A stretch of 64,000 nt of DNA from assembly GCA_038874595.1 (NCBI GenBank), contig JAVZCB010000002.1:32001-96000 (forward strand). Reading direction: 5' to 3'. Shown here piece by piece: positions 2,819 through 64,000 of the stretch (positions are counted from its first letter, which is position 1; each line of letters begins with the position of its first letter). A program made the position numbers and the translations under genes. The stretch comes from Candidatus Micrarchaeia archaeon (lineage in GTDB: Archaea; Micrarchaeota; Micrarchaeia; CAILAH01). Under the pieces are notes generated by a model, which saw only the letters and a program-made list of their open reading frames with translations, had not been told where the DNA came from and searched no databases.

Positions 2819-2894
2819 GTATTAACCTAAAATGCTAAGATATATTAAGTTTTCTCTGCAACAGCTTTTGCCTCACACCTGGGTTCAAAAAAAG

Positions 2895-3440
2895 CTACTC
2901 TTTTCCTAATGCACCGCCAGTATCTTTCGCTTTAGGGGGCCTGCTTCTTGCATCATCAATAAGCGCAAGCCACGATTCGCCTATCTTGTTCAAGTAATTC
3001 CCAAAGGTCTTACTTAAGGAGATAACCATGGGACGGTACTTCTGCTTGCTATGCTCTGCACTTATAGTTTCACGCTCTACCTTAACAAGGCCGACGCGCT
3101 TTAAGCGGGGGAGGACACGGTTATAGAATGTGGCCTTTGAAATTGAGTTCACCTTGATAAAGTTTGATATCTCCTTACCTTCCATCTTATGTACCTGCAT
3201 AAGCTCTTTCATAAAAACAAGTGATATCTCGTGATATGTGGGCTGGTATTTTTTAGGAAACACAAAGTTGAGAAGCTCTTCGAGGGACCAATAATTCCTG
3301 AGAGGTGACTCATTGTCATCCTGGAACTTTCGGAGCTCGGGCGAATAGTGCGGTGGGAGGTAAAAAGACTCCTTGCTCGGGATGCCCCGGGTTGCAATCG
3401 CTCTTTTTAATTTATATTCAGTTTGTAGCGCCTCCTCCAT
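2895..3440 (-). CDS. Hypothetical protein, probable winged-helix DNA-binding domain
   Basis: 181-aa ORF; ISKATFYNRVLPRLKRVGLVKV resembles a wHTH recognition helix and wing. Confidence 0.65.
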   Translation of the reverse strand: MEEALQTEYKLKRAIATRGIPSKESFYLPPHYSPELRKFQDDNESPLRNYWSLEELLNFVFPKKYQPTYHEISLVFMKELMQVHKMEGKEISNFIKVNSISKATFYNRVLPRLKRVGLVKVERETISAEHSKQKYRPMVISLSKTFGNYLNKIGESWLALIDDARSRPPKAKDTGGALGKE

Positions 3441-3482
3441 ATCTCTATATCACGCTCCGAATTTATAAATATTTGAAGTTAA

Positions 3483-3713
3483 ATGAGTGTTATGTCAAGT
3501 GAAGGCGGGCTGTACAAGGAATCCCAAAAAGAAGAAAAGAGAAAAGGGGATGTTTTCAAGGAAAAGGAGATTCTTAGGGAATCAAAAAAAGAGCACGCCT
3601 ACAAGGCACATGCTAAAAGATTGTCAAACAAGGAAATATTCTCCATGCTCTCGGGGTTCAAGAAGAAATGGGTGAAAGGCCTGCTCGGAGCGCTGAGAAA
3701 ACTGCTCGGCTAA
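3483..3713 (+). CDS. Small basic hypothetical protein
   Basis: 76-aa ORF filling a gap, divergent from the gene ending at 3440, with TATA-like tttataaata just upstream. Confidence 0.45.
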   Translation: MSVMSSEGGLYKESQKEEKRKGDVFKEKEILRESKKEHAYKAHAKRLSNKEIFSMLSGFKKKWVKGLLGALRKLLG

Positions 3714-3773
3714 AAATAACGAGCAGGGAAATTACGAAAGGGCGTCTCGCTTTGTTTTAATATGTGCATTGCA

Positions 3774-4352
3774 TTATGTTAAGAATTTCTTTTTCAGCTT
3801 ATCAATAGCGGCCTTGACAGCAACTTTCTCATCGACCGTTATATTTTCATCTTTCAGGACAAGCTCTGCATACATCTCATCAAAAAAGCTAAGCGTCGAT
3901 TCCTTATCCTTCTCAAACGCGCGCCTAAACCAGGCAACGGCCTCATCCTCATTTTCAAGCATTACATAACAGAGACCTATCAGGCAGGCGGCATGGTAAT
4001 CCATGCCCTTAAGAAACGCCTCGTTAAGCGCCTTTATCGCATCCGAGAACCTGAACATCTTTATGAAAACGTATGCCTTGCCCATAAGAGGCTCAACAAG
4101 ATTTATGTCCAGCTTGGAGGCCATATCAAAGGCAAGCAATGCCTCCTCGTATTTCTCCATCTTAAAAAGCGTCATCCCCTTCATATACCATGCGAGGCCC
4201 TGCTTTGGGTCAAGCTTGGTTGCATCCTCATATTTCTCCAAAGCCTCCTTGTATTCACCGCGCTCGTACATCTCATTTGAGTGTGCAACCAACCCTTCAT
4301 ATGCATTGTCAACCGCATCCTGCTTGTTGTCGCCACTATCCTGGGAGGACAT
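3774..4352 (-). CDS. Tetratricopeptide repeat protein
   Basis: TPR consensus (AWYMKGMTLFKMEKYEEALLAFDMA...). Start moved to MSSQDSG to avoid overlap with the DUF424 gene. Confidence 0.85.
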   Translation of the reverse strand: MSSQDSGDNKQDAVDNAYEGLVAHSNEMYERGEYKEALEKYEDATKLDPKQGLAWYMKGMTLFKMEKYEEALLAFDMASKLDINLVEPLMGKAYVFIKMFRFSDAIKALNEAFLKGMDYHAACLIGLCYVMLENEDEAVAWFRRAFEKDKESTLSFFDEMYAELVLKDENITVDEKVAVKAAIDKLKKKFLT

Positions 4353-4404
4353 AACCCTTATTCTGCGGGAATGTTTAAATACATTGGAGGGCAAAAGCGC
4401 TACT

Positions 4405-4689
4405 ATGCATTGCAGGAGGCATGAGTATAAAGGAAAGGTTGTGTTTGCGCTGTGTGACAAGGACCTAATAGGCAAAAAGCTTGAGGAAGGAAGCATTGTG
4501 CTTGACCTTGATAAGTATAGGAATTTTTACATTGGTGATGACCTTGAATCGTTTGATGGCACATTTGAATCCATAAACGCGGTGGGTGAAAAAAGCACAA
4601 CCTTCCTTATCGAGAAGGGAATAGCGGCAAAAAAAGATTTGAAATATATAGCGGGCGTGCCAATTTTACAAGTGTACAAAATAAAGTAA
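4405..4689 (+). CDS. DUF424 family protein
   Basis: VFALCDKDLIGKKLEEG...NFYIG...INAVG...IAGVPILQ matches the archaeal DUF424 pattern; start at MHCRRH. Confidence 0.8.
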   Translation: MHCRRHEYKGKVVFALCDKDLIGKKLEEGSIVLDLDKYRNFYIGDDLESFDGTFESINAVGEKSTTFLIEKGIAAKKDLKYIAGVPILQVYKIK

Positions 4690-4889
4690 AAACATAATTA
4701 TGTGCTGGATTCTTTCTTGATCCACACAAGTTTTACAAATGTGCAAAATAAAGTAAGTTGGGCAGTTAATAAGATTTCCCCTTATTAAGCAGCATAAGGA
4801 GATATACCACGAGCACGATATGGTTACCAAACTATTCCTGTTTTGCTCTGGGCTGGCAATCCTGCTGCAAGTGCTGTGCGGTCTTCACT

Positions 4890-5354
4890 CTATTCCTGCT
4901 TTCCTTTAAGCATTGATGATATTACAGGAACATCTATATCCTCGCCAAGTGCCGCCTTATATCCAACATAAATCCCATAGAGCCATACAACCCAGCCAAG
5001 GAATAACATCCAGAATAACACGCTCACTGCCCAAAGCATGGCAGACTGCTTGCAATGAAACACTGTGCGCTCTTCTTTATTTAGCAGGTATAGTATGAGC
5101 GAGCCGAGCGGGAAAAAGAAATATGCAAGGAAAATGTCCCATCTCCCTGCCGGTGCGCTTTTTTCCTCCCCTGGCTTTTTTAGGTCCTCAGCAAGCCCCT
5201 TTGACATCTCGGCTGGCACAACCATCTCGCTCTCACCTGTATCGTGCCTAAGCTTATTTTTCTCGTCTTCAAGGAACTTGCCAGCTATTTTCGGCTTTGC
5301 CTCTTTTGGCTCGGTTTTCTTGAAATCTGTCTTTTTCTTAAATGTGTCCACCAT
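4890..5354 (-). CDS. Membrane protein, DUF4870-like
   Basis: LAYFFFPLGSLILYL...VFHCKQS...GYKAALGE.IDVPVI pattern after a charged N-terminus. Confidence 0.7.
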   Translation of the reverse strand: MVDTFKKKTDFKKTEPKEAKPKIAGKFLEDEKNKLRHDTGESEMVVPAEMSKGLAEDLKKPGEEKSAPAGRWDIFLAYFFFPLGSLILYLLNKEERTVFHCKQSAMLWAVSVLFWMLFLGWVVWLYGIYVGYKAALGEDIDVPVISSMLKGKQE

Positions 5355-5362
5355 CCAACCAC

Positions 5363-5719
5363 CTATAACAACTTTAAGTGTTTTGTAAGAGGGTCAATAT
5401 CAGATGATTTTGCAGGGCCGATTGCAAGTGCAGTTATGGTACCCGGCTCAAGCTGCGTAAGGCCAGCATCCTGTATGAGTGCACACGGCAGGCCCGCTTT
5501 CCTTGCTAAGGTAAAAATTGATTGCATCTCTGCAAGAGAGGCCTTTACTGCAATCTTTTTCTCGCCCTGTAGTTTCCAGTCAGATACAGTGCGCGGCGTG
5601 CTTCTGGCTGCATCCTCAAACGCACGCACAGCTGCGTGGCACGCCTGCGCAACCGCTTTCCCCTTTCCCATCTGAAGGTCACTACGGATAATTATCACTT
5701 GCTTTATCTCATCAAGCAT
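5363..5719 (-). CDS. pth2: Peptidyl-tRNA hydrolase Pth2
   Basis: KQVIIIRSDLQMGKGKAVAQACHA, QDAGLTQLEPGT, T.HLKLL. Confidence 0.95.
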   Translation of the reverse strand: MLDEIKQVIIIRSDLQMGKGKAVAQACHAAVRAFEDAARSTPRTVSDWKLQGEKKIAVKASLAEMQSIFTLARKAGLPCALIQDAGLTQLEPGTITALAIGPAKSSDIDPLTKHLKLL

Positions 5720-5773
5720 ACAGGAATCATTCTGCACTAAGTGTTAAATACATTTCAGAATGCAATGATAAGG

Positions 5774-6763
5774 ATGGAAGACATACGAGGGCTTGTCGAA
5801 GAGCTTCAAAAGGCCGAGCAGGCACGCATAAGCACTGCAAAGGAGCTACTAAAAATTGATGGGATAAAGGCTAAATGCGCAAACACGAATAGTGAAATTA
5901 ATATTAGGGTTGGGGCTGTTGATACGAGCATTATCCTGCAGGAGTTCCATGCGTTTGACCTTATGATAACAAAAACTGTTGGGGTTGTGTTTGAATACCA
6001 AAATGGGAGATTGAAAAGCCACGAGTATATACCTTCGCCGATGCCAAAGGAAAAGCTGCACGTTCACGGCTCAATGGACTTGATGGAGCTTGGGAATTAT
6101 AAGAGCATTGTGCGGCTGAAAGAGGAGATTTCGCTCGCAATCAGGATTGCTGAAAAGTGCGACCTCCTTTTGCTTGATGGATCGCTCGTTCCTCTCCCAG
6201 GTGATAAGCCATCATCAAAAGAGCTAAGAAAGGAATATGACGAATTGCTCGCGCTTTATAGGGAGCTGTTCTCAAAATATGAAAGCAAAATCGTAGGTGT
6301 AATTAAGGATTCACGAAGCAAGAGGCTTATGGAGGAATACTCCACACTTATTGATAGCTCTGTGATGTGCAATTCAACTGACAGCACACTGCTTGACCTG
6401 ATGCTTGAAAAAGGTGAGATGAGCAGGGTGCTTTCATACTCAAAGGACCCTAAAAGCAATGGTGTGCTGAAAGACCTCCTACCATATTCGGAGAGATTGA
6501 ATTGCGTGTACATCAAGCCTGGAAAGAATGACCGGCCAGTGCGGATTGAGATGTTTGGTAATGGGGAGGGTGTAATTGATAAGGTATATGCATTATGTGA
6601 TATAAACGATAACTATTCTTACCCCGCCGTACTTATTGATGTTGACCTGCGCGCGCTGATGGACCCCAGGAATGTTGAGAGGATATACAGGGAGATTGAG
6701 GTTGCACCTTACCTGAAAGATGTGCGCGCGCTCAGAAGGAACTCGCGGCCGTTCAGGACCTAG
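5774..6763 (+). CDS. nurA: DNA double-strand break repair nuclease NurA
   Basis: GAVDTS, LLLDGSL, VGVIKDS and SYPAVLIDVDLRA motifs; probable leaderless start MEDIRG. Confidence 0.85.
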   Translation: MEDIRGLVEELQKAEQARISTAKELLKIDGIKAKCANTNSEINIRVGAVDTSIILQEFHAFDLMITKTVGVVFEYQNGRLKSHEYIPSPMPKEKLHVHGSMDLMELGNYKSIVRLKEEISLAIRIAEKCDLLLLDGSLVPLPGDKPSSKELRKEYDELLALYRELFSKYESKIVGVIKDSRSKRLMEEYSTLIDSSVMCNSTDSTLLDLMLEKGEMSRVLSYSKDPKSNGVLKDLLPYSERLNCVYIKPGKNDRPVRIEMFGNGEGVIDKVYALCDINDNYSYPAVLIDVDLRALMDPRNVERIYREIEVAPYLKDVRALRRNSRPFRT

Positions 6764-6837
6764 GGCTCCGAGAGAGTTCAGAATGAAAGCGCATATTTTT
6801 AGCAAAAAAGCTTATAAATGTTCTTTGGGAAAGTATT

Positions 6838-6918
6838 CCGTAGCTCCACTCCGAGTTGCGGCCATAGTGGTCGCCAAAACGCCACCGCCAGTCCCGATGG
6901 ACTGGCCTAATTCTTTTT
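6838..6918 (+). ncRNA. Candidate small structured non-coding RNA
   Basis: GC-rich island with three consecutive hairpins between convergent genes. BRE/TATA (aaaaaagcttataaat, 6804-6819) lies upstream and a T-tract downstream. Confidence 0.5.
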
Positions 6919-6964
6919 AATGGCTTTGCATTAGCGTTAGCCTTACACACAGGCAAGACGCTGG

Positions 6965-9646
6965 TTACTGGCTTGCCCTGCGCATTGTGAGAATTCCTAT
7001 CCCTAAAAGCCCTATGAGAGCAGGGAGCACAAGGCACACTGATGGGCCAGATGGTTCCCCGGAGCGGATACACTTGTGTGCCTGGCACACATAGCCCGGA
7101 TCGCAATCGCTGTTTTTGTTGCAACTGCCCGTGCCTGCCGGCATATTTTGCCCTCCGCTTGCTGGCTTTTCGGAACAGACACCATTCCTGCACGAAATCC
7201 CAAGACCTTTGTAAACACACTCATAATCCTGCTGGCAGGGGATTTCCTTTGATAGTGGAACGGTTGCAGAGTAAACACCTATCGGCCTGCTCCCATCAAC
7301 CTTATCGTAGAACTCCTTTGTTGTTATTGTAAATGTTTCTGATGCCCTGTTGTTTGTATTGGGCTGGTACGCATACATTGTAATTGTTGCATCATACTCG
7401 CGCGGCGGGTACGGGACGTGTAATGCCCCTTCGGAAACTGGTACATCGTAGGAGTACGACAGGTGTGCATTTTCACCGCTAAACTTAACTTCTACGTGTA
7501 TCATAGCACCAGCGGTAACTGGATTGCCGTTTTGGTCAACAAGTGCAAGCTGGATTTCACTCCCGTTAAGCGCCTCAAGGTCGCTGCGGTAATCGGACGG
7601 CGCTGCACCGTTCCCTGAATAACCGAACGGCTCGCCCTGGTCCCATCTCCCATTATTATTTAGGTCCTGGTAGGCACCGTGCATAATAAATATCTTGTCA
7701 AGCTGTGTGATTCTCTTATCCTTGTCATAGTACTCAAGCAATGGCTTGTAGCCGGATGCGTTAAGCGCGATATACAGGTCACGCAGTGTTTTCACGTGCC
7801 TCACACCCTTTCCGTCACCGAAATCGCGCTTCTGCGAATATGCATCCATTAACGTTGAGATAGGGATAACTACAAAATCATCATCAATGCCCCCGCGCGC
7901 CTGCGGTGAATCGCGAAGGTCAATCAGCAGGGATGCAATCGCCATCTCCTCCATCATGCTGGGGTCGCTGTATTTGTTCTTCTCTCGGAAAACCTTCTCT
8001 TGCATCTGGTAATTGAGCTCAAGGTTGAATGCAACACCGCGTATGCGGTAAAGGTCATAATCAGGATTATCCTTGTAATAATTCTTCATCTCCCACGCAC
8101 AATACTCCGCCCATCCTTCAAGAAGGCCCCACTCTGAATTCGGGTTTGTGTAATAACCACCGTGGTCTACGCCCGGACGGCCTTCCTTTGTGCTGAACAG
8201 CTCGTTCTGTATGTGGTGGCAGTACTCGTGGTATATTGTATCTTCTATGTACGATGAAGTAAAAGAGGAGCTCATATCAAGAAGGCGCATCCCCGGCGCA
8301 TTTGGGTCATCGTCCTGCCACACCTCATCAACGTGGGTGTTGCCTTTCTTGTTATATATGAAGACCCTCTCTTTTACTGTTGAGGTTTTCTTGAATACAT
8401 TCTCCTTGAACTCAACCGCTTTCTGAGCGGTTACAAAAACCTTTGCAGCATCCGAGAGCTCCTGCACCTTATGACTTGTCAAGTCCATCTGGTAGTTTGA
8501 AAGGCGCGGGTCTGAAACCGGGATTGCATCTTCATATGAAAACCGTAATGGATAGTTTGGGTTATCCTCAACCACATACAGCCTTCCCTTTGACTCATCA
8601 AATACAACCTCAACCGAGATCTCATACCCGGGCTGGAATGCTTTCGGGTCATCCCAAACAAACCTGCCATTTTCATCTGTGGTAAGGTGGCCGTATGCGT
8701 AGATGTGAGTGTCCTTTACTGCAATCGTCTCTATTTTCACAAATTTGAGAGGAACCTTCTTGCCCACTGGGCTGTAATAAAACACCTCCCCCTGCATCTT
8801 CACCTGCCTGCACTTCGTGTTATCTTCACACCCCTGCGGGCACTGCTCCTCTTTATATGTACACGCACCCGTGCCTGGATCACACACGCCTTCAGTGTAC
8901 ATTACACCATTCTCGCACTTGTCAGGGCACTCTATACCAATACACTTGTTTTTTTGTGGTTGTGCTGCGGGCAGTGGCTTGGCGCAATCTATTTTGTAAA
9001 AGGTCTCACCACCATACGGGCAGTTGCACGAGCAGTCCATTACTGTATCCTTCCACTGCACATATGCCACAAACGCGCAGTCATTCCCAAGCTTTGCCTT
9101 GCAGTATGAGTTGCAGTAATCTGTAAGTGTTGTTGAACCATAGCAGGGATTCTTTTCCCCTGTGGGCTGTTCAGGGGGTTTCGATTGCCTGCATTTTGAT
9201 TCACAGGATGTTTGCACGGGCTTGCAGTACTTATCAAGAAGCGCATTGTAGCAATCGCTCTCCTTTTTCCTGCAATAGTCATCAAGCTCTGAGTAATCTG
9301 CCTGAATCTCGTTCGCTTTCATGCAGGACATATATAGGTTGTCACAGGTTGCCTCCTTTTCGGCCCTATAAGCTGCCCCTGGGTTTTCATAGTATTCAGA
9401 TGTGCCCCCTGATGACTGCACACCGCTCTTGCAGCGCCTGTATTCCCAGATGCAGTCAAAAGCGCACTGCTCCTCTGATGACATTGCATTGTAAGCAGTC
9501 ATGTCATAGAGTGCACAGTAGGAATATTCACACGCCCAGATTCCGGACATTGTCTCGCAATTTCTTGCGCATTCTATATAATCCATCTCGGCAAACACAA
9601 ATGTGATGCTGGACAAAACAAGCAGGAGCATTAGGTAAAATCTCAT
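6965..9646 (-). CDS. Secreted Cys-rich zinc metalloprotease-like surface protein with C-terminal membrane anchor
   Basis: Signal peptide, many Cys repeats, HEYCH plus downstream EGWAE, DLNNNGRWD Ca-binding-like motif, C-terminal CLVLPALIGLLGIGILTMRR. Confidence 0.8.
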   Translation of the reverse strand: MRFYLMLLLVLSSITFVFAEMDYIECARNCETMSGIWACEYSYCALYDMTAYNAMSSEEQCAFDCIWEYRRCKSGVQSSGGTSEYYENPGAAYRAEKEATCDNLYMSCMKANEIQADYSELDDYCRKKESDCYNALLDKYCKPVQTSCESKCRQSKPPEQPTGEKNPCYGSTTLTDYCNSYCKAKLGNDCAFVAYVQWKDTVMDCSCNCPYGGETFYKIDCAKPLPAAQPQKNKCIGIECPDKCENGVMYTEGVCDPGTGACTYKEEQCPQGCEDNTKCRQVKMQGEVFYYSPVGKKVPLKFVKIETIAVKDTHIYAYGHLTTDENGRFVWDDPKAFQPGYEISVEVVFDESKGRLYVVEDNPNYPLRFSYEDAIPVSDPRLSNYQMDLTSHKVQELSDAAKVFVTAQKAVEFKENVFKKTSTVKERVFIYNKKGNTHVDEVWQDDDPNAPGMRLLDMSSSFTSSYIEDTIYHEYCHHIQNELFSTKEGRPGVDHGGYYTNPNSEWGLLEGWAEYCAWEMKNYYKDNPDYDLYRIRGVAFNLELNYQMQEKVFREKNKYSDPSMMEEMAIASLLIDLRDSPQARGGIDDDFVVIPISTLMDAYSQKRDFGDGKGVRHVKTLRDLYIALNASGYKPLLEYYDKDKRITQLDKIFIMHGAYQDLNNNGRWDQGEPFGYSGNGAAPSDYRSDLEALNGSEIQLALVDQNGNPVTAGAMIHVEVKFSGENAHLSYSYDVPVSEGALHVPYPPREYDATITMYAYQPNTNNRASETFTITTKEFYDKVDGSRPIGVYSATVPLSKEIPCQQDYECVYKGLGISCRNGVCSEKPASGGQNMPAGTGSCNKNSDCDPGYVCQAHKCIRSGEPSGPSVCLVLPALIGLLGIGILTMRRASQ

Positions 9647-11364: not shown

Positions 11365-11432
11365 ATCTTGTATTTATATGTTTCCCTTTATGGTTACAAA
11401 TTCGCTAAGGCGCAGGGCATACAATGAGCATC

Positions 11433-11750
11433 TTATTTCTTTGTTTGTTTTGTATTTTTAGCAACCCATTTCTCAAAAGCAGGCGTTGATGAAGAATTCC
11501 ACGTAATAATTGCTGGAAGCTCGTAAGGGTGTGATTTATTGATTATTGCAATTGCGCTCTTTCTTTTGGCAGGAGTGGTCTTGGCAATAAGAATAAACTC
11601 AATAGTATCTTGTAATGTGCCTTTCCACTCATAAATGCTACGTGATTTTATAATGTTTGCGCAAGCCGCTACACGTGCTGTAATGAGCTGCCTTGCAACA
11701 ACCTTTGCGGATTTGAAATTCGGAAATGGCGAGTAAATTAATGTAACCAT
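11433..11750 (-). CDS. cutA: Divalent-cation tolerance protein CutA
   Basis: AACANII...SIYEWKG...KT...HPYELPAI. Confidence 0.95.
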   Translation of the reverse strand: MVTLIYSPFPNFKSAKVVARQLITARVAACANIIKSRSIYEWKGTLQDTIEFILIAKTTPAKRKSAIAIINKSHPYELPAIITWNSSSTPAFEKWVAKNTKQTKK

Positions 11751-11842
11751 GTATTCAGATGTTCATAAAATAATAAAAGCCTGTGCCACTATAAAAAATC
11801 AATAAGCAATTAGTACCGGCAAGCCGAAAGGTTTAGGAGCAT

Positions 11843-11986
11843 GGCTCCCTACAACTTCGGGTTGCCGGGGTGGTAGGGCCAAGCAAACCGAAAGGTTTGC
11901 GGGCACCTTTTGCAGACGCAAAAGTGTGGGCGCCGGCTCCCTACAACTTCGGGTTGCCGGGGTGGTAGGGGGCGCCGGCTCCCTAC
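11843..11986 (+). repeat. Hairpin-rich direct repeats in the tRNA-Cys leader
   Basis: ggctccctacaacttcgggttgccggggtggtaggg at 11843 and 11935, with a third ggctccctac abutting the tRNA. Confidence 0.9.
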
Positions 11987-12227
11987 GCCGAGGTGGCAGA
12001 TTGGCTATGCGGCCGGCTGCAGAGAGCCTTTTCTTTACAAAAGAAAAGTCTCGCGAAAAGAAAGTGTGATTGGCACTATCCACTATCCTTAGGGGATAGG
12101 TGTAAACCACACTAAGGACAACGTTTGGCGAAGCCAAACGATGCGCCATTCGCTTATGCGAATGTGCGAGGAGGTACCTCCTTCCATCAGCAACCGGCAG
12201 AGAGGGGTTCAATTCCCTTCCTCGGCT
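11987..12227 (+). tRNA. tRNA-Cys(GCA) with ~170-nt intron at 37/38 (12023-12192)
   Basis: 5' exon GCCGAGG TG GCAGATTGGCTATGC G GCCGG CTGCAG and 3' exon A CCGGC AGAG AGGGG TTCAATT CCCTT CCTCGGC T; all stems pair once the insert is removed. Confidence 0.9.
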
Positions 12228-12341
12228 TGTACTTTCTTTTGGTTTCGCCTCCGGCGAATATCCTAAAGAACCTACACTAAGAAACTCCTTCTGTACTCTC
12301 TTTTGGTTTCGCCTCCGGCGAATATCCTAAAGAACCTACAC
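12228..12341 (+). repeat. Direct repeat (64-bp period) immediately downstream of tRNA-Cys
   Basis: tgtactYtcttttggtttcgcctccggcgaatatcctaaagaacctacac twice, each with a ttcgcc-tcc-ggcgaa hairpin. Confidence 0.9.
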
Positions 12342-12440
12342 CAAAAACAAGCCTATGGTTATTTTAGTGATTAATGCAAAATACGTCGTGTGCTATTTTT
12401 TTCAAAAATAGATATGTATATATATAACATTAAACAAAAT

Positions 12441-13265
12441 ATGTATATGCCAACGCACCCTTACCTCTCAAAGGGACCCACCACTGCACTAAAGGAAAAA
12501 AGCGCTGAGGAGAAAAAGAGGTCATTCAACAAAATGAAAGTATTGGGCGCGCTCATTATAAGTATCCCTTCAATTATTGGTGCGTGGCAAACCTACCAAT
12601 ATGCAAGCACAAATTATCCTATATGGAATGCAAGCATATACAAAATTAATGGCGAGGGCAAAATGAAAAAGGTATGGGATAAGGGGAATGTGAATAATAT
12701 TAAGGAATTCACGCAGCTGCTTCCGGGCGTGCTCAACACAGATAATGAGAGATTGCTGGAGGGCCTGAAAGGTGTTATTATCCAATTCCATACAGAGGAC
12801 CGGCCGGAGATGATTGGCGGCAATTACGATTCTAAAAATAACATAATCCACATATACCCTGACACAACCAACGGTGTGCTGCTGCACGAATTACTGCATC
12901 ATATTTACGAGAAGGTGCTCACGGATGCGGAGAGGGCTGAGTTTAATGCATTTGCAAAAAAGGTTTACTCGCTTGCAAAAAAGGATACTGCTGAGCTATA
13001 TGATGCGCTTAAAGGCGGGCTTACCCCTGAAGGGATAAAATACTTTGAAAGGGCATATGAGATTTCATTGAGAGTAGAGCAATACAAGAACAATTTTCAA
13101 TCATCTCAGGAATTTGAGCGGTTTGCTGCGTCTGAACTGTTTGCCGCAGTGTTTGATTTCAAAGATTTTGGGGTAGCATACCCAATAAAAGCGATATATG
13201 AGAACTACCTTGATGAGTCGTTTGTTTCACAACTTGTAAATCAGCACACCAAAGATATGTTTTAA
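12441..13265 (+). CDS. Membrane-anchored putative zinc metallopeptidase
   Basis: N-terminal TM helix, GVLLHELLHH and a distal SELFA. Confidence 0.7.
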   Translation: MYMPTHPYLSKGPTTALKEKSAEEKKRSFNKMKVLGALIISIPSIIGAWQTYQYASTNYPIWNASIYKINGEGKMKKVWDKGNVNNIKEFTQLLPGVLNTDNERLLEGLKGVIIQFHTEDRPEMIGGNYDSKNNIIHIYPDTTNGVLLHELLHHIYEKVLTDAERAEFNAFAKKVYSLAKKDTAELYDALKGGLTPEGIKYFERAYEISLRVEQYKNNFQSSQEFERFAASELFAAVFDFKDFGVAYPIKAIYENYLDESFVSQLVNQHTKDMF

Positions 13266-13267
13266 AT

Positions 13268-13729
13268 ATGATGCACAGAAAGAATAAAGGTGAGATTATG
13301 CCAGAACAAGCAGAAAAATATTGGTTAAGCAACAAGCAAGGTTTTGAAAAGGCGTTGGAGGAATTTAATTATGCTGCAAAAAATTTCGTAGATGCTAGTA
13401 TTCTAGGAAAACTTGAAGCATATTTTAAACTGAGGAATGCGGGAAGGAAGCTTGATGATGCTGCGCGCAACCTGGCTGCGGAAATAAATGGATTTAGAAA
13501 ATATGGCTCAAGAGACATCGAAAAGCAAGTGAAGGGTGATCCAGTATTGCAGCTTGCACTCAGGATTGCCGAAGAGCAAAACAAGACCCTTCAGGCCGTT
13601 CCAACAAAGAATGTTGGAACTACCTCAGAAACTAAGAAGCGTACTGGAAATAAAGAGAGTATTGGTCATACCGGAAAAGTTTATGGGTATTATATCGATA
13701 AAGAAACTGGGGAAGTAAGAAAAAAATAA
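13268..13729 (+). CDS. Hypothetical protein
   Basis: 153-aa ORF directly after the peptidase; a possible start at 13298 follows GGTGA. Confidence 0.65.
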   Translation: MMHRKNKGEIMPEQAEKYWLSNKQGFEKALEEFNYAAKNFVDASILGKLEAYFKLRNAGRKLDDAARNLAAEINGFRKYGSRDIEKQVKGDPVLQLALRIAEEQNKTLQAVPTKNVGTTSETKKRTGNKESIGHTGKVYGYYIDKETGEVRKK

Positions 13730-13863
13730 TAACAGCACATCATCTTTTTCCGAATTTTTTTGATTACTAGAAGTAAGGTTATAGAAACATTAATAAACCT
13801 TACCAAAGAGAGTATTACCTACCAAGATACCTTTATATTTGTATTGTAATAGAGGGTGTAAAA

Positions 13864-14790
13864 ATGACCACTGTAAAAGAATGTCCCGAGTGTAAGGGCT
13901 CTAAAATTATACAGGATTATGAGCGTGGAGAGCTCATCTGCGCAACCTGCGGCCTAGTTATAAGTGATAGCATGGTCGATGAAGGTCCTGAATGGAGGGC
14001 TTTCGACAGCGACCAGCGTGATAAAAGGGCAAGGACAGGAGCGCCAATAAAGCTTATGAGGCCGAATAAAGGTCTCTCAACTGAAATTGACCAGTACAAC
14101 AGGGACATTCGTGGTGTCAAGATTAATACAAAGAAACAGGCACAGCTCTACAGAATGAGGAAATGGCATAAGAGAAGCAGCATCCAGAGCTCTGTGGAAA
14201 GGAATCTCGCAATTGCACTCACCGAATTGGATAAGATTGCATCATATCTCGGGCTGCACGAATCAATCCGTGAGGAGGCAGCGCTGATGTACAGAAGATG
14301 CATCGAGAAAGGAGTAAGGGGTAAGAACATTGAGGCACTCGTTGCAGCAGTAATTTATGCTGTGTGCAGGCAGAGAAACATGCCAAGAACGCTTGCTGAG
14401 ATCGCACAGGTTTCAGGTGTGAAGAGAAAGGATATAGGCAGGACATACAGGATACTTGTGCAGGAACTCAACGTTGGTGTGCCTCTTGCAAACCCGCTAC
14501 ACTATGTACCCAGGTTTGTAACGGCACTCGGCCTGAGCGGCAGGGTACAGGAGACTGCAATGGACATACTAAAAGATGCAATCGATAGGAAGCTCATTTC
14601 CGGTAGGGGGCCAACTGGGCTTGCGGCAGCCGCTGTTTATGCGTCATGCCTGCACCACGCAGAGCACAGGACACAGAAAGAAGTTGCGGAAGCTGCTGGT
14701 ATCACAGAGGTTACGATAAGGAACAGGTTTAAGGAGCTCAAGGATACGCTTAACCTTGACCTGCCTGAGATTGAAGGCCAGTTCGCATAA
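13864..14790 (+). CDS. tfb: Transcription initiation factor IIB
   Basis: CPEC...C.TCG zinc ribbon, GPEWRAF, two cyclin repeats, TEVTIRNRFKE. Confidence 0.98.
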   Translation: MTTVKECPECKGSKIIQDYERGELICATCGLVISDSMVDEGPEWRAFDSDQRDKRARTGAPIKLMRPNKGLSTEIDQYNRDIRGVKINTKKQAQLYRMRKWHKRSSIQSSVERNLAIALTELDKIASYLGLHESIREEAALMYRRCIEKGVRGKNIEALVAAVIYAVCRQRNMPRTLAEIAQVSGVKRKDIGRTYRILVQELNVGVPLANPLHYVPRFVTALGLSGRVQETAMDILKDAIDRKLISGRGPTGLAAAAVYASCLHHAEHRTQKEVAEAAGITEVTIRNRFKELKDTLNLDLPEIEGQFA

Positions 14791-57160: not shown

Positions 57161-58747
57161 TCATATTGTTGAAATGGACGCCCCCATATTTGAAAGCACC
57201 ATATTGATGTTCTGCAGCGAAGATGCTATCAATGTTGCTGTTGCCTCATCCATATCCTCATCCATTGCCGCCGGCGGCTCAAGCTGCGTATCTACAGGAA
57301 AAGAAACCTCTGCAAACTGGACATTGCTTTTGTAAAGCCTTATTGTCAGGTTTGCGTTGTTATTATACTTTGTCGGGATTACCACGAGCAAACTTCTTGT
57401 GTCCAAAAGCTGTGCATTTGAGTAGTTCTTATCCGGCTGTTGCGGGACGACCATTATGAAGCCTGAATCCTCGCGGACAGTCATATCTGCAATAAATGGT
57501 GAACCAAGATTGTCAAGCGCTGTAACGTTGATTATATTTGGTGCGCCTGCCTTGAGTACCGGCACGGCTGTGTGAGTCCCATCCTCCGATATGTTTATTG
57601 CATGGCGTTTCATCTTACCTTCTGAAATCCACTTGGTTGCTGTCGCTGCAAGGGCGTTCATGTTCTGCACAGAGCTCTTTACCTGGCTGGAGTATTGGGG
57701 GCTTACAAGCGAGCTGCGATATGTGGGTGAAAGCGAGGCATAATCTGTTATGTTAAGCCGCTTAATGCAATAAATGGGGCTTGTAACTTCTACATATATC
57801 TCATAGCCATACGAGTCAGGTATGTTATAGCGTGTTGGTGAGACAGCATACATCGCCTGGCCGGTGCCATCTGCAACTGCATAGCCTCGCTGGATGTGTG
57901 TGTTTGCACCAAATAATGGAAGTAGAATATTACGGCCATTAACTTCAGAGAGCCGCAACTGTGCGTTTGGGATTACCGCACCGCTTCCTAAATCGCGCAC
58001 AACAACACGCAGCTCGTAAGGCACACCTGTTTTCGGGAAGTGTGTTGTATAAGTGCCGTCTATGTATGTGTCTATGACGCATTCAGGATAAACATAAAAG
58101 TAATAACTCTCGTTCCTGGGCATCATATATTGGAAATCAAAAACGGTTGTGTTGTAGCCTACCTGGGGGCCAAGCGTTACTATAAAGAGTGGCTCAACGC
58201 GCGTGCCGTTGTTGAATTTCAATATGCTCAAATTGATATTTGGGTTTAGTATTATGTAGGGGCACGGGATTACAAGGCCGCTAATATTGCAGGAGTGGTA
58301 AATGCATGCTGGGTTGCAGAAAGTATAGAGCGGGCTCTCAATGAACTTCATAAAATCTAGGCCTGCAAATGTCGTAAAGCCGGAAAACATCCCGCCATTG
58401 CCGAAATCTGCGGGTACTGGCGACTGAAAATGGCTTGGCGAGGGACGCACCGGCAAGCGGGTAAGTATTGCACTCTGGCCTGGGAAACTCCCATTGATAT
58501 ATGTTGTGTAAACTGTTGCATTTTTGGCATATACAAATCCGATCGGTTTTGAAACGTCCGGAGATACCGAAACGTTCATCCAGCCAACAACCGCTGCCCA
58601 ATGTGAAGTTGGCATATTAACTGATAGGTTTGAGCTGGAGATGTTACCGCCGCGCGTAACCATGCTGCCTGCGTGAGCCGCGTGCGCTGCAAGGATTATT
58701 AAAATGAATAAAAATAGAAAAGATGGGCACTGCGACGCAACCATCAT
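57161..58747 (-). CDS. Secreted protein ('A' domain plus two 'B' domains)
   Basis: Signal peptide from MMVASQ; RGGNISSSNL...HWAAVVG and YYFYV like the 224-aa protein; two G.PY/G.PN repeats. Confidence 0.85.
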   Translation of the reverse strand: MMVASQCPSFLFLFILIILAAHAAHAGSMVTRGGNISSSNLSVNMPTSHWAAVVGWMNVSVSPDVSKPIGFVYAKNATVYTTYINGSFPGQSAILTRLPVRPSPSHFQSPVPADFGNGGMFSGFTTFAGLDFMKFIESPLYTFCNPACIYHSCNISGLVIPCPYIILNPNINLSILKFNNGTRVEPLFIVTLGPQVGYNTTVFDFQYMMPRNESYYFYVYPECVIDTYIDGTYTTHFPKTGVPYELRVVVRDLGSGAVIPNAQLRLSEVNGRNILLPLFGANTHIQRGYAVADGTGQAMYAVSPTRYNIPDSYGYEIYVEVTSPIYCIKRLNITDYASLSPTYRSSLVSPQYSSQVKSSVQNMNALAATATKWISEGKMKRHAINISEDGTHTAVPVLKAGAPNIINVTALDNLGSPFIADMTVREDSGFIMVVPQQPDKNYSNAQLLDTRSLLVVIPTKYNNNANLTIRLYKSNVQFAEVSFPVDTQLEPPAAMDEDMDEATATLIASSLQNINMVLSNMGASISTI

Positions 58748-58754
58748 CTTAGAA

Positions 58755-60509
58755 CTACCTCTTTCTCTTAGCAGTCTCGTGCTCCTCTGCCTGCCCGCCC
58801 CTCCTTGTAGCAAAATATATCACCACTATCAGGAGAATTATCACTAATATTATTAAGCCAATCATCAGCGGGTCTATGCCTTTATCACTTGCAATACGCT
58901 GGAGTGGTACTACTGACTCTTTTGTTTTTTGCAGGAACCCTTCCCTTGCACCATATTTGAGTGAGACCTTAACTTCTTTGTTCGCCTCCAAATCAGAAGG
59001 GGATAAGCTAGCTGGCAGTGTTACCACAGTAATTGAGCCTACTGGCACTTTGGTTGTGGCTCCACCCTTTAATGTTGTTAAGCTTCCGCCCATAACAAGA
59101 GATACTGATGCCTGCACGTACGCATCCTGCTCGCCTGTGTTCTTAATGCTTATTCTTAAATCGCCATCTTTATATGAGACACCTGCAACGTCAACATCTG
59201 AATTATCCATAAACGAATACGTTGCAATATCAATTGACTTTGCAGTAAACGCTGTAAGGGATTTTGGGGTTTCCCCATATCTTACTATAACATCACCGGT
59301 AATCTTACCCTCCTCAATAGATGGCAATTCATAATCATACTCAAGCCCTTTCGTCTCGCCGCGCTCTATGAGTAAGGGTTTCGTGTCTCCCAGCACTTTC
59401 AGCTCAGTATCGTCCTGTTTTATGTGTATTTCTGTCTGGTAATATTCCGGCCCTTCTGCCTTGCTTGTGATTTCAAGCTCGATTTTGCCAGTCGCCTTGT
59501 TGTATTTCAGGGAATCTATACTCATCCCAAGGACGTATGAGGGGACCGGGAAAATATCAAGAGGGAATGTGCCCTGGGTGCCAGGCACTGACTGCCCAAA
59601 CTTTACTATTACAGCAATTGATTTGTCGCTACCCTCGCTCTGCAGCTGGGCCTGCACTCTTTTCTTGAGATCATATGCCGGGTTTATGAGATTGCTGCCT
59701 ATAAGGATATATGAGCCCAGCTTGCCCGTGCGGGCATTTTCAAGCACAAAATCATAGGTAGAATCTGCAATTATAGGTGATATCAATACCACTGGAAGCG
59801 TGCCATCAACCATCCCCTCTTCTATAAACGTGCCATCGGACATTATCGCCTGCTTAACACCGTGCTCATTTACCATTTTTGAAACCAATTCAACGTTATC
59901 CTCATACTTGTCTTCCCCTTTGCCTATTACAGTTGGGGAGTACTTCTCTAGCTTCTTTCTTGTTGCTGAATCTACATATCCGAAAATTGTTACTTGCGGC
60001 GAATCCTTCCTATCAAGAAATTTGACAACATTATCAACGTTTCCACTATACGCAAATATGACGTAAGATTTTGTCATTTTTGCATATGAAATCACTGAGA
60101 TTGCATTCTGGCCAAAAGAAGGGTCTATTATTATGAATTTGTTTACTCCTGACTTCTCTGCAAGGTCCAGGTTTGTCTTAAACCCATCTGCGGATACACT
60201 GTATAAAGTTACCTTGTTTGATTTTCTCAGCTCATTTTCAAGGAATGTCGTAACTGGGGTGTTTGCGGATTGTATAAGCAAAATATCCCTGCCTGAACCT
60301 ACCTTGGCTGCTGTAAGCTGATAGTTACCATTAAACGGCATAAACCGTGCGCCTATACCTATTGCGTTTGCATAGTAAATGCCTGATAATACATCAAGGC
60401 CGCTTTTTGAGTTTATAACAACATAATTCTCTGCAAACGCGAGCGGAAATGCAAACAAGAGCAACATCAATACAGCATGCTTGCTTATCATCATAACACC
60501 CCTACACAC
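58755..60509 (-). CDS. Membrane-anchored protein with cell-wall-binding-repeat-2-like N-terminal region and Ig-like domains
   Basis: Signal peptide; VINSKSGLDVLSGIYYA and IGKGEDKYEDN resemble CWB2 repeats; C-terminal TM with basic tail. Confidence 0.75.
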   Translation of the reverse strand: MCRGVMMISKHAVLMLLLFAFPLAFAENYVVINSKSGLDVLSGIYYANAIGIGARFMPFNGNYQLTAAKVGSGRDILLIQSANTPVTTFLENELRKSNKVTLYSVSADGFKTNLDLAEKSGVNKFIIIDPSFGQNAISVISYAKMTKSYVIFAYSGNVDNVVKFLDRKDSPQVTIFGYVDSATRKKLEKYSPTVIGKGEDKYEDNVELVSKMVNEHGVKQAIMSDGTFIEEGMVDGTLPVVLISPIIADSTYDFVLENARTGKLGSYILIGSNLINPAYDLKKRVQAQLQSEGSDKSIAVIVKFGQSVPGTQGTFPLDIFPVPSYVLGMSIDSLKYNKATGKIELEITSKAEGPEYYQTEIHIKQDDTELKVLGDTKPLLIERGETKGLEYDYELPSIEEGKITGDVIVRYGETPKSLTAFTAKSIDIATYSFMDNSDVDVAGVSYKDGDLRISIKNTGEQDAYVQASVSLVMGGSLTTLKGGATTKVPVGSITVVTLPASLSPSDLEANKEVKVSLKYGAREGFLQKTKESVVPLQRIASDKGIDPLMIGLIILVIILLIVVIYFATRRGGQAEEHETAKRKR

Positions 60510-60669: not shown

Positions 60670-60702
60670 AAGAAGAAATGCAAAAAAGAAAGAAAAGAGG
60701 TT
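60670..60702 (-). terminator. T-rich archaeal terminator after the 224-aa gene
   Basis: Minus strand ...cctcttttctttcttttttgcatttcttctt directly after the stop codon. Confidence 0.55.
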
Positions 60703-60708
60703 TCCAGC

Positions 60709-61383
60709 TTATGCGAGCTCTGCGTAGAAGTAGTATGTGGTCAGGCCTGTATCTGGCGTTGTTGGAACCATCAGCTCATAGTGTGCTGGGTTGCCAAGGT
60801 AGTTGTTGCCTGTTGCGTTTGCTGCTACGCAGAATGCATAATTTGTTGTGTCTGTAATTGCACAGGTCCTGAATGTATCTGCTGCATTGTTGCCTGTGTC
60901 AACTGCTGGAGCACTGTTAATAGCACCCTGGCCTGCAAAGTTCAGTGTGCATGTCCCGGTAAGTGTGTTGGTTGCGTTGTCTGCCGCATTACCTAAGTTA
61001 TAGAATGAGTTGACGCCTGCAGCAGTTGCAGCAGCTGCACCAAGGAAATTGAATGCACCACTGTTTGATGCACATACATAACCACTGTTAATCGTGGTTA
61101 CAGACCACCTGTAAACATAGTTTGTTGTGCTGCCTGCAGCAGAGGTTAAGTAAATCGTACCTGTCAGGTTTCCAAAGAAGGCTGCCCACCTGTCAGTTAA
61201 TGATGTTGCTGAGAGGTTCAGGTCTGAGATGTTACCACCTTCAATGGATATCCCCTGTGCTATCGCACTGCCCTGCCACCTAGCATAATAGCTTTGGGTG
61301 GAGTTGGTTGCGTTGTATGGTGTTGCGAACGCGAGGCCGAACACCATCAATACTCCAAACATGGCCATGTATCGCCAATTCAT
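60709..61383 (-). CDS. Small secreted Ala/Thr/Asn-rich 'A'-domain protein, putative major filament subunit
   Basis: Signal peptide; EGGNISDLNL...RWAAFFGNLTGTIYL...YVYRW...YELMVP...YYFYAEL; strong RBS AGGTGA. Confidence 0.85.
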   Translation of the reverse strand: MNWRYMAMFGVLMVFGLAFATPYNATNSTQSYYARWQGSAIAQGISIEGGNISDLNLSATSLTDRWAAFFGNLTGTIYLTSAAGSTTNYVYRWSVTTINSGYVCASNSGAFNFLGAAAATAAGVNSFYNLGNAADNATNTLTGTCTLNFAGQGAINSAPAVDTGNNAADTFRTCAITDTTNYAFCVAANATGNNYLGNPAHYELMVPTTPDTGLTTYYFYAELA

Positions 61384-61416
61384 ATTGTATCACCTGGAAC
61401 GTATTCTGCAGTAAGG

Positions 61417-61460
61417 TTTAAATATCTTATATGATATTCCTTCCCACAAAGAAGGATATC
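61417..61460 (-). promoter_or_regulatory. TATA box with adjacent inverted repeat upstream of the 224-aa gene
   Basis: Minus-strand tatttaaa at 61417-61424; gatat(t)ccttc-N7-gaaggatatc at 61433-61460. Confidence 0.45.
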
Positions 61461-61553: not shown

Positions 61554-62918
61554 ATGAAAACGCTAAAACACTCTAAGATTAATGATATAAAAGAGAACGA
61601 GCTGAAACAGACCTCTAATAAAGTTGAGTTTGCGAGGCTCTTTAAAGATATGCTAAAAGATGAAAATAAAGAAAGCCTGCTCACCAAATTAAAGGAGAAA
61701 GGCAAAAAGGCAATGATCACGCTTATCGCCGTCTCAATGCTTTATACTACTAACATAAACTGCGGTGAGAGTGTTCCACAACCGCCTGTCGTTGAGGATG
61801 CGGTAATAGCAAAGGATGCGTCTCCAAAAGAGGATGCTACTGCTCCAGATGATGTTAGTGACGCTGGGAAGGATGTACTGGAAGATGCTAAAGGGGATGT
61901 AGATGTTGATAGCGGGGTGGGTGATGATACCGCTACGGACGCTAAAGAGGATGTAAATGACGACAGTGGGATTGATGCTGGGGAACAGGTTGATGATGTA
62001 GGGCTTGATGCAGATGATACTATTGATGTTAACTGGCCGGATGCGGGAGTGGATGCTCAGGATGTTCCTGATACGGGTGATACTGGCGAGGTAACAGATG
62101 TATGTACGCCAGGAGAGTGGGAAACAAAAGCTGAGGATAAGAGCAGGGATGATATTTTTATATCAAAAGAAGGTACAAGCATAGGTGTGAATACAACGTT
62201 TAACGTAGAATACGAAACTAACGGCTGTGAAATCAACAATGAACATATAACTCGCATAATATACAAATTTTCACCCTCTATAAACCTAGATAAAATGTCG
62301 CTTTCCCAGGTGCAACTAGGGCTGTGTACAACTATTGATAATTGCGATTTGCTGGAGCTTGAATATCCCGGAGAAACTTCTGCGATAAAGCTGGCACAAA
62401 CTTATGGGTTCGGGCTAGAGAAGGAAATAATATTCGGCATAAAAAGGATTGTTGATAAATCAAATGAGTTTACCGGGTGCCATCCAATCTCACCAAAATG
62501 CTACACAATGAAAGAAACAAATGGTACAACTGAGAGGGATGTTCAGGTATGCTGCTTTGGGAATGGCCAGCAGCCTATCGATTTGTACTATAATAAGGTA
62601 AGGTATAGCGTTGCAACCACAACAGGTGCCACTTGCTTAAGTGCAGATGACAGGTGCTTGGAGCTGCTTACATTTACACCTAATGAAGACATAAGCAAAA
62701 TAAAGTACAGATTTTCCGTTGCCATCGACCAGCCATATATGATGGTTCAAGGAAAAACAATATGCTACGGCGACTCTATGCAGGTACCGCTGGGTAACGT
62801 TACAAAAGAGTGTGTTCCTTTCGAAAAAGATGGTAAAGTTTTCTCTGTGGAATATGTAGAGAAAGATGCAAATGGGGATATCAATAAAATCGCAATGAAG
62901 GTAAACAACAAGGAATAG
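61554..62918 (+). CDS. Lipoprotein-like surface protein with Asp-rich linker
   Basis: KGKKAMITLIAVSMLYTTNINCGE, DAG-rich acidic linker, Cys-rich C-terminal domain. Confidence 0.85.
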   Translation: MKTLKHSKINDIKENELKQTSNKVEFARLFKDMLKDENKESLLTKLKEKGKKAMITLIAVSMLYTTNINCGESVPQPPVVEDAVIAKDASPKEDATAPDDVSDAGKDVLEDAKGDVDVDSGVGDDTATDAKEDVNDDSGIDAGEQVDDVGLDADDTIDVNWPDAGVDAQDVPDTGDTGEVTDVCTPGEWETKAEDKSRDDIFISKEGTSIGVNTTFNVEYETNGCEINNEHITRIIYKFSPSINLDKMSLSQVQLGLCTTIDNCDLLELEYPGETSAIKLAQTYGFGLEKEIIFGIKRIVDKSNEFTGCHPISPKCYTMKETNGTTERDVQVCCFGNGQQPIDLYYNKVRYSVATTTGATCLSADDRCLELLTFTPNEDISKIKYRFSVAIDQPYMMVQGKTICYGDSMQVPLGNVTKECVPFEKDGKVFSVEYVEKDANGDINKIAMKVNNKE

Positions 62919-62944: not shown

Positions 62945-64000
62945 TTACTCCAGTTCTATATATATAGTTATTGTGTTCCCTGCGCCTTCATATGTTGCGA
63001 GGGTATACGGAATCATTGCAGCGTACATATACTCACCGTACGTGTCAGGTTCTGGGGAAGGACTTGCCTTGACTGCCCATACCGTGGATTGTGTGCCTGA
63101 ATACTCACTACCACCATCTGATGTGTCCCATAATATACCTGTCTTGAATTGTGTTGGTCGTAGTGATGAGTTTGCAACGGGGACGTTTTCAACTGTCCTC
63201 TTGTAGATTGCATAACTGTCTGTCTCTTTTGGAATCGTCCCATCAATTGAATATGTCTTGTTTATATTATCTGGGAATGATGTACTTGAAAATGCCGTGT
63301 CAAGCTCAATGAAATCGTTAGAGCTCGCTCCACCGGAAGTATCCCTGCCTATTGCCTGAAGCGCTTGCCAATCAATTATCGAATCACCATCTGCAAAGTA
63401 CACGTTAACAGCCTTTGCATCATTCCACTTGTAGACATATCTTGAAAGCCCTCCTTCACTGTCTGTCAGATAAATGCTCCCATTAACATTTCCAAAAAAT
63501 CTCTGCCAGAGGCCTGAGCACGAGAATTCACAACCATAATGGTTATTCTCGGCCCACTGGTACCAGTAGTCACAGTAGTCTTTCTGGCCGCTGCTTGATA
63601 TCATTCCGTTAATATAGTTGTTTTCAATATCCATGTTATCATTAAAGCATATGTAGTTGCTTGAAAGTGTATAAGTGAGGCTGTTCTGGTCAAGATAGAT
63701 TCCCTTAACGGTGTTTCTTGATATATTATTACCACTTAGGAAAATGGTGTTGCTGTTCACTGAATTTATACCGTACGTGTTTGAAACTACTGTGTTGTTG
63801 TTTGCGTAAACACGTACTGAAGAGATAATATAGACACCCCCATACAATGCGCTCGGATTCCTGATGTAATTAAACTCAATGAAGTTATCCTCGCTTACTC
63901 CAAGGAAGTGCACTCCAGAATACTTGTTGTCAATAAAGGTGCTGTTTGCAATCAGGTTATATCCTGTACCATCAAGCATTACACCGTGTTGTGTATTATT
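62945..64000 (-). CDS. Partial (runs off right edge) beta-helix protein with C-terminal 'A' domain
   Basis: Frame stays open upstream of the listed Met to the window edge; NosD-like repeats, then WQRFFGNVNGSIYL...YVYKW...YAAMIP...IYIELE. Confidence 0.88.
   Translation of the reverse strand, partial: NNTQHGVMLDGTGYNLIANSTFIDNKYSGVHFLGVSEDNFIEFNYIRNPSALYGGVYIISSVRVYANNNTVVSNTYGINSVNSNTIFLSGNNISRNTVKGIYLDQNSLTYTLSSNYICFNDNMDIENNYINGMISSSGQKDYCDYWYQWAENNHYGCEFSCSGLWQRFFGNVNGSIYLTDSEGGLSRYVYKWNDAKAVNVYFADGDSIIDWQALQAIGRDTSGGASSNDFIELDTAFSSTSFPDNINKTYSIDGTIPKETDSYAIYKRTVENVPVANSSLRPTQFKTGILWDTSDGGSEYSGTQSTVWAVKASPSPEPDTYGEYMYAAMIPYTLATYEGAGNTITIYIELE

Follow-up and report, generated by a model that had tools for sequence, protein, structure and literature searches.

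DPANN archaea live attached to hosts, and little is understood of how they mount their surface proteins. The locus described here raises this question through one small gene: what does a 224-aa secreted protein, encoded at positions 60709–61383 (− strand) of the window (the whole 64,000-nucleotide stretch of DNA that was analysed), do once it has been exported? A preliminary description had cast it as the major subunit of a filament, in which each subunit would lend an N-terminal segment to the next. The locus suggests another kind of system, testable and in two parts: a handle with an apparently new fold and an archaeal CWB2 anchor.

A small secreted protein with its own expression signals

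The protein (P0001) is the stand-alone form of what we call the A domain, as judged from the ORF call, 46 close homologues of ~225 aa from Micrarchaeota MAGs, and the 495 cluster representatives found in an exhaustive search. Its residues 1–20 (61324–61383, −) read as a Sec/SPI-type signal peptide, consisting of MNWRY, a hydrophobic helix and AFA, and both AlphaFold models place a helix at residues 3–19. Sec export with a signal-peptidase-I site is also what is expected of donor-strand subunits. We rejected the reading of A as a type IV pilin with an archaeal class III signal peptide because the signal is of the wrong type: after the hydrophobic helix come an AXA site and a polar mature N-terminus (TPYNATNST), and the mature part is all-beta.

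Behind the signal peptide lies an N-terminal segment (residues 21–65; 61189–61323, −), delimited by the models and by conservation, which carries R35-W36 and a TEGGN(I/V)(S/T) motif and is the stretch that had been claimed as a donor strand. Within it, G49-G50-N51-I-S (61225–61239, −) is the most conserved sequon of the family: across 135 sequences, G50 is invariant, N51 is conserved in 94%, and a sequon is present there in 93%. A second sequon, at N56, lies five residues further on, with opposite strand parity and 56% conservation. The remainder of the protein (residues 66–224; 60712–61188, −) is predicted to form a beta-rich core of ten strands and two short helices, modeled mostly at a pLDDT of 88–98, with the cysteine pairs C104/C185 and C145/C173, a terminal TYYFYAEL strand, and a fold without a known match. 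That A has four cysteines (C104, C145, C173, and C185), several glycosylation sequons and no membrane anchor had been noted before, and the ORF translation bears this out in full, with seven N-X-S/T sequons, no TM segment or C-terminal anchor, and YYFYAELA as the last residues. C104 and C185 are each conserved in 84% of the 135 sequences. The mature protein is acidic, with few charged residues and a high content of A, T, N, and G, a composition like that of surface proteins, and the source genome contains a gene for an STT3/AglB-type transferase.

The TATA box, inverted repeat, AGGTGA ribosome-binding site and T-rich terminator that had been ascribed to this gene are all there. The AGGTGA site lies 6 nt 5′ of the ATG (61390–61395, −), and GGTGA is found at many orthologous loci. 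At 34–55 nt 5′ of the ATG, a TATA-like TTTAAA/ATATAA region (61417–61438, −) sits within the palindrome AATATC-ATATAA-GATATT, and orthologous loci have TATA-like boxes at a similar distance. A T-rich tract (CTCTTTTCTTTCTTTTTTGCATTTCTTCTT; 60670–60699, −; 50% T, with a T6 run) begins ~10 nt past the stop codon and is a candidate archaeal oligo-T terminator. The TATA-like box, the GGTGA site and the T tract after the stop codon are present at most of the 21 orthologous loci, with a run of at least five Ts following the A stop codon in 16 of them. Within the source genome, a GGTGA/AGGTG-type ribosome site precedes only 12% of ORFs of at least 200 aa, and its combination with a downstream T-rich stretch (at least 50% T and a T run of at least 6) occurs in only 6 of 561 such ORFs, among them A itself and the putative S-layer gene. 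With a separate TTTATATAA box for the next gene, A is most probably transcribed as a monocistronic unit. These observations support the view that A is transcribed on its own and has strong expression signals shared by other genomes; such conservation fits high, separate expression, and the protein is probably made in quantity. A scan for sigma-70 promoters and hairpin terminators, which is unsuited to archaea, gave nothing above shuffled sequences.

The palindrome at the A promoter (61421–61438; repeat I2) is 18 bp long and perfect (6+6+6), with the TATA-like hexamer at its center, and could be a regulator site. It was not seen at the closest orthologous locus (L017), and its 6-bp arms may therefore be due to chance. 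A second, imperfect inverted repeat (GATATTCCTTC ... GAAGGATATC; 61433–61460), which the detected repeat I1 overlaps, lies upstream of the TATA region, and the orthologous loci inspected showed no counterpart. GATATC-like words recur as far as 61460, beyond the palindrome.

Predicted fold and the N-terminal segment

From an alignment of 46 sequences, AlphaFold gave a confident core and left residues 20–61 unplaced (pLDDT ~30, below 50), though these hold invariant residues. From a deeper alignment, of 135 stand-alone A sequences, the monomer was predicted with confidence throughout (pLDDT 90.8, pTM 0.83), and residues 21–65 were placed in cis at a pLDDT of 81–88. DSSP assigns these residues as coil, so that the segment would wrap the ten-strand core of its own chain and not form a strand.

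Neither sequence nor structure searches linked this model to a known family. No family in Pfam or NCBIfam matched A at E up to 0.1, its profile matched nothing under E 0.46 among PDB sequences, and the best values obtained with the model were E 0.83 (TM ~0.1) for Foldseek against the PDB, Z 2.4 for VIA-align against 48,161 chains, and E 0.1 for Foldseek against BFVD. No pilin, TasA, bundling-pilus or thread subunit, whose folds characterize the known donor-strand filaments (PMC9715654), appears among the Foldseek PDB, VIA-align and BFVD rows. Chains with a pilin-like Ig fold or a TasA-like jelly roll are thus missing from the hit lists, which is not proof that A has neither fold. A lead to a WxL domain in the Atlas, scored 0.75, was rejected as being at chance level and without Pfam support. 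On the strength of the models, A is predicted to be a self-contained secreted glycoprotein domain whose fold is apparently new, and a confident model without a structural neighbor makes it a good target for structure determination.

The segment recurs elsewhere in the window, and its distribution had suggested a filament in the first place. In the A cluster, a 550-aa protein (57161–58747, −) begins with a diverged A-like domain, which starts at GGNIS directly after the signal peptide and is followed by two B modules. The GGNI...W segment that it shares with A was found by tblastn (54% over 24 aa), and hhalign extends the homology with A to the entire N-terminal domain, between TEGGN and the terminal YYFY strand (probability 99.1%, E 5e-19, 160 columns, A residues 47–221), which establishes the A-B-B architecture proposed for this protein. 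The giant beta-helix protein ends in an A-like domain (62945–63510, −) that matches A from W66 onward only. Here TEGGNIT is absent, and the Cys motif CDYWYQWAENNHYGCEFSC stands before the conserved W, a replacement also found in six other genomes. The preliminary description was thus right that the segment is common to A and the 550-aa protein and missing from the terminal domain of the giant. In seven giants and other large proteins from seven genomes, the window's giant included, TEGGNIT is replaced by C[DN]xWxxWxENGHxGCxYxC..W. The three-Cys motif occupies 63510–63560 (−) in the window and, at loci L014, L021, L027, L012, and L007, likewise takes the very place of TEGGNIT in free A, possibly as a disulfide-knotted stand-in for the N-terminal segment.

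These data bear directly on the proposal of a donor-strand or segment-swapped filament with A as its major subunit, in which GGNI would be passed to the next subunit, the giant would cap one end, and the 550-aa protein would start or anchor the other. Several features speak for it: the SPI signal, an N-terminal extension of ~45 residues that contains the most conserved motif of the family, strong separate expression signals as in pilin genes, and a segment left unplaced in the shallow model beside a confident core. The three domain classes also suit a filament, one being the full domain, one a segment-less domain that ends the giants, and one a domain that starts exactly at GGN after the signal peptide. 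Known archaeal threads, moreover, combine Sec/SPI export with N-terminal donor strands (PMC9715654).

Against this stands, above all, the deep model, in which the segment is ordered in cis as coil, together with the lack of any similarity to a pilin, TasA or thread fold in the searches above; the proposed donor-strand mechanism found no support on either count. A self-contained monomeric fold, named in the preliminary description as the outcome that would speak against strand exchange, is what was found, as far as a monomer prediction can tell. The two sequons at N51 and N56, being of opposite parity, fit poorly to a strand with one buried face. The giants do not simply lack the segment but have a conserved Cys motif instead, so the asymmetry that had been read as a filament terminator is real but has a simpler reading: the position would be filled in cis rather than left open, as a trait of this subfamily. 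What survives of the major-subunit idea is that A is a separate transcription unit and the free form of a shared module; the segment-swapped mechanism finds no support here. Since segment exchange lies beyond what a monomer prediction can exclude, we retain the filament, and consider it improbable.

The A family and its CWB2 partner

Among the best 187 of the 495 A representatives, there are 146 stand-alone proteins (~225 aa) and 40 fusions, in which the A domain, N-terminal segment included, always ends within four residues of the C-terminus. The cargo domains fused to A are Laminin_G_3 (ConA-like lectin), F5/8-C (discoidin), Beta_helix/NosD, and a Mal s 1-like propeller. That the full segment is retained between cargo and core in these fusions argues further against the filament. 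In a FastTree phylogeny of 186 domains, one clade holds 37 of the 42 fused copies (SH-like support 93/98), and the cargo-linked copies would thus descend from an old paralogue and not from repeated fusions. The two stand-alone A copies of the source genome fall in different clades. Two further, more diverged A classes exist, one at the N-terminus of the 550-aa protein and its relatives and one at the end of the giants. No natural A-A tandem was found among the 187 proteins, nor any fusion of A to the protein encoded next to it, p584.

This neighbor (58755–60494, −) is a 584-aa protein with a signal peptide, a CWB2 triad at residues ~21–290, two Ig-like/CARDB domains, and, as read from the sequence, a C-terminal TM helix with a basic tail. 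In Clostridioides, CWB2 is the module through which surface proteins are anchored to the wall. The p584 profile matches the CWB2 triad of C. difficile SLP_H (7acx_B) with an E-value of 5e-5 over two repeats, PF04122 matches 13 of 24 p584 members (best E 7.9e-9), and CARDB matches 8 of the 24. The nearest Atlas structures are CWB2 proteins in 10 of 10 cases, aligned over residues 21–290, and p584 has the three tandem repeats that form one complete triad. No charge complementarity was seen between acidic A and the CWB2 part of p584, which is not notably basic.

The association of the two genes is close to obligate. In 20 of 20 fetched loci, from 20 genomes, stand-alone A directly adjoins a p584 homologue, in co-directional or, often, divergent orientation, and by hand count p584 lies within 1.6 kb of ~42 of 47 stand-alone A genes in ~40 Micrarchaeota genomes. 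Of 201 genomes searched in the phylum, 44 have A and 45 have p584, and every strong A match is accompanied by a p584 match in the same genome; where A occurs alone, the A-like matches are all weak, and the sole strong case of p584 without A lies at a contig end. The exceptions to adjacency are three stand-alone A genes located 15–17 kb from p584 or on another contig (genomes G069, G081, and G128) and one on contig C3 of G152, where the same contig has no p584 match. The source genome has two A and two p584 genes, which form one adjacent pair in the window and another on contig C5. A gene of the 550-aa type follows p584 in 15 of 21 loci, which indicates that the conserved core is a gene triad of free A, CWB2 anchor and A-tipped stalk protein. 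Read from the genomes in this way, adjacency and co-occurrence prove a functional link between A and p584, not physical contact. A universal partner of this type also weighs against the filament, as we know of no donor-strand system that uses a CWB2 membrane anchor.

A further possibility is that A is a secreted lectin-like domain that binds a host cell or glycan and, as a C-terminal module, targets cargo to it, with p584 acting as a co-receptor or being linked through regulation only. A is indeed beta-rich, extracellular and joined to glycan-binding and beta-helix cargo, and the organisms that encode it are DPANN symbionts. The top Foldseek rows for A, at E ~1, are viral receptor-binding jelly rolls and a legume lectin, but they lie at chance level (TM ~0.1), and no known sugar-binding motif was found in A with Pfam or NCBIfam. 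Such targeting would also leave unexplained both the strict C-terminal placement of the domain and its near-obligate adjacency to a membrane anchor, and we give it little credence.

Another idea is that A and p584 are the two components of a lattice or coat, comparable to C. difficile SlpA (a CWB2-triad H and an exposed L subunit) or to SlaA/SlaB, in which cargo-A fusions would take the position of A. In favor of this, the two genes form a near-obligate pair with matching copy numbers, A has an S-layer-like composition, and it shares the combination of SD sequence and T tract with the putative S-layer gene. CWB2 triads also tile the C. difficile S-layer (PMC8881574). That putative S-layer gene is itself an argument against the lattice. 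It is a 915-aa ORF on contig C4 of the source genome (G000; 90915–93653, −) with full-length homology to a ~930-aa PF05123-like protein of a related genome, and it has the same rare GGTGA site and strong downstream T tract as A. It is likely the main S-layer protein, resembling SLP_Mh, the described Micrarchaeota S-layer protein (bioRxiv 10.1101/2021.04.28.441871). A, with 224 aa and no Pfam match, has none of the marks of that type (PF05123-like, ~100 kDa, ~900–950 aa, S_layer_N-like regions), and its small size and the separate candidate on contig C4 led us to reject it as the main S-layer protein; A and p584 would accordingly form an additional system. A scan for PF05123 matched just 9 of 201 genomes and is too insensitive for a comparison of its distribution with that of A and p584. 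A is also small for a lattice former, and the pair is absent from most families of the phylum, including two large ones in which neither gene was found (0/56 and 0/36 genomes). We regard the lattice as unlikely.

A possible surface handle and its relatives among known systems

The reading that we prefer, with a probability of roughly 0.55, is that A is the free, probably abundant form of a Micrarchaeota-specific tethering or co-assembly handle, an extracellular domain of ~200 residues, which works with the membrane-anchored p584. As read from its sequence, A would be exported through Sec and cleaved by signal peptidase I after AFA. It would then be N-glycosylated at the conserved GGN(I/V)(S/T) sequon and at N72, for which the AglB/STT3 gene would provide the enzyme, and is predicted to fold into a compact monomer, with two disulfides stapling neighboring strands and the N-terminal segment wrapped around the core in cis. 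Near-obligate adjacency and co-occurrence suggest that the mature protein would be retained non-covalently on the distal CWB2 triad of p584, which would stand on the two Ig-like domains and the C-terminal TM helix. The contact could be between the proteins themselves or could run through the conserved glycan, since in Bacillota the ligands of CWB2 triads are glycopolymers. Cargo proteins (ConA-like lectin, discoidin, beta-helix, and propeller) would dock onto the same receptor through their C-terminal A domains of the sister clade, while the giants would use the Cys-motif variant and the stalk proteins the N-terminal variant. Free A would occupy or coat the anchors that hold no cargo, and would not be a classical donor-strand pilin. 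Of this scheme, the analysis shows the domain classes, what p584 is, how closely the two genes are linked in position and occurrence, and the monomer model; the abundance of A, the role of its glycan and its physical binding to p584 are the parts that we infer.

Besides the missing charge complementarity and the few A genes that do not lie close to p584, two points count against the handle. It is hard to see what a cargo-free handle would be for, unless it is structural in its own right, which keeps the polymer and lattice readings alive, and in the 550-aa protein the diverged A-like domain stands at the N-terminus, so that some subfamilies can do without a free C-terminus. A bolder version of the handle goes further, and we hold it to be doubtful: A-type domains, as a universal handle of new fold, and the membrane-anchored triad would form a new archaeal display system, the triad would recognize the conserved N-glycan on the GGN(I/V)(S/T) loop, and the three domain classes (free or cargo-linked, Cys-motif giants, and N-terminal stalk) might fill the three grooves of one triad. 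Docking through a glycan would then be the equivalent, in a cell without a wall, of the binding of CWB2 to wall polymer.

The nearest known logic to the proposed handle and anchor is that of C. difficile SlpA H/L and the Cwp family (PF04122; PDB 7acx/7acy). As in that system, p584 has a complete three-repeat CWB2 module, and a small exposed partner and many cargo proteins are joined by one anchoring logic, with clustered genes. Unlike it, the triad of the A system would be carried on a membrane-anchored stalk in a wall-less archaeon, and cargo is attached to the A domain, a partner that is not a CWB2 protein, so that the roles are inverted. The SlpA subunits come from one precursor, interlock through LID/HID segments and form a 2D lattice; A and its anchor are encoded by separate genes and not by one cleaved precursor, and the fold of A is unrelated to that of SLP_L.

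With donor-strand filaments (chaperone-usher pilins, TasA/TapA of B. subtilis, the AbpA bundling pili of Pyrobaculum, and the Saci_0406 threads of Sulfolobus), A shares the profile of a small, Sec/SPI-exported, beta-rich glycoprotein with a conserved N-terminal extension. The A fusions carry the subunit domain C-terminally, as do FimH and PapG, and A has its own strong expression signals, as do genes for donor-strand major subunits. It differs in that its extension is predicted to be a coil packed in cis, in that no similarity of fold or sequence was found, and in that no chaperone, usher or TapA-like gene is present, the conserved partner being the CWB2 membrane anchor.

A recurring terminal module on diverse cargo, combined with a specific receptor on the cell or a membrane-anchored stalk ending in a C-terminal TM helix, is also known from cohesin–dockerin pairs, SLH-type display and SlaA/SlaB of Sulfolobales. 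Unlike the modules of those systems, to which it is unrelated in sequence and structure, A spans ~200 residues, is predicted to be glycosylated and disulfide-stapled, and also exists as a free, probably abundant protein. Our literature search found no paper on the A domain or on archaeal CWB2 anchors in DPANN. New here are the adjacency and co-occurrence of A and p584 across the phylum, the cargo clade, and the replacement of the segment by a Cys motif in the giants. If the handle reading is true, the system would organize giant beta-helix and lectin-like proteins, which are likely to be involved in host contact, in several Micrarchaeota families, and a bacterial wall-anchoring module, CWB2, would gain a function in wall-less organisms.

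Some further features of these loci are worth recording. The sole plus-strand gene of the cluster (61554–62918, +) encodes a 454-aa protein with a long acidic linker rich in D, A, and G and a Cys-rich C-terminal domain; it had no family match and was not found beside A in the other loci examined. In genome G042, of the same family, a 612-aa ORF (L017:6322–8160, −) consists of the N-terminal portion of the 550-aa protein fused to most of the 640-aa membrane protein, a natural fusion which suggests that the 550-aa and 640-aa proteins of the window act as one unit. In three genomes of one family (loci L010, L024, and L025 of G190, G001, and G121), A is flanked on both sides by p584 paralogues, one of full length (560–603 aa) and the other of 485–513 aa, matching the first two thirds only. 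A second copy of the module lies outside the window, at ~2387–14213 on contig C5 of the source genome (G000), where an A-tipped stalk protein (2387–4465, +), a p584 paralogue (4534–6240, −), and a stand-alone A (6353–7027, +) are followed by a 938-aa cargo-A fusion (11397–14213, −).
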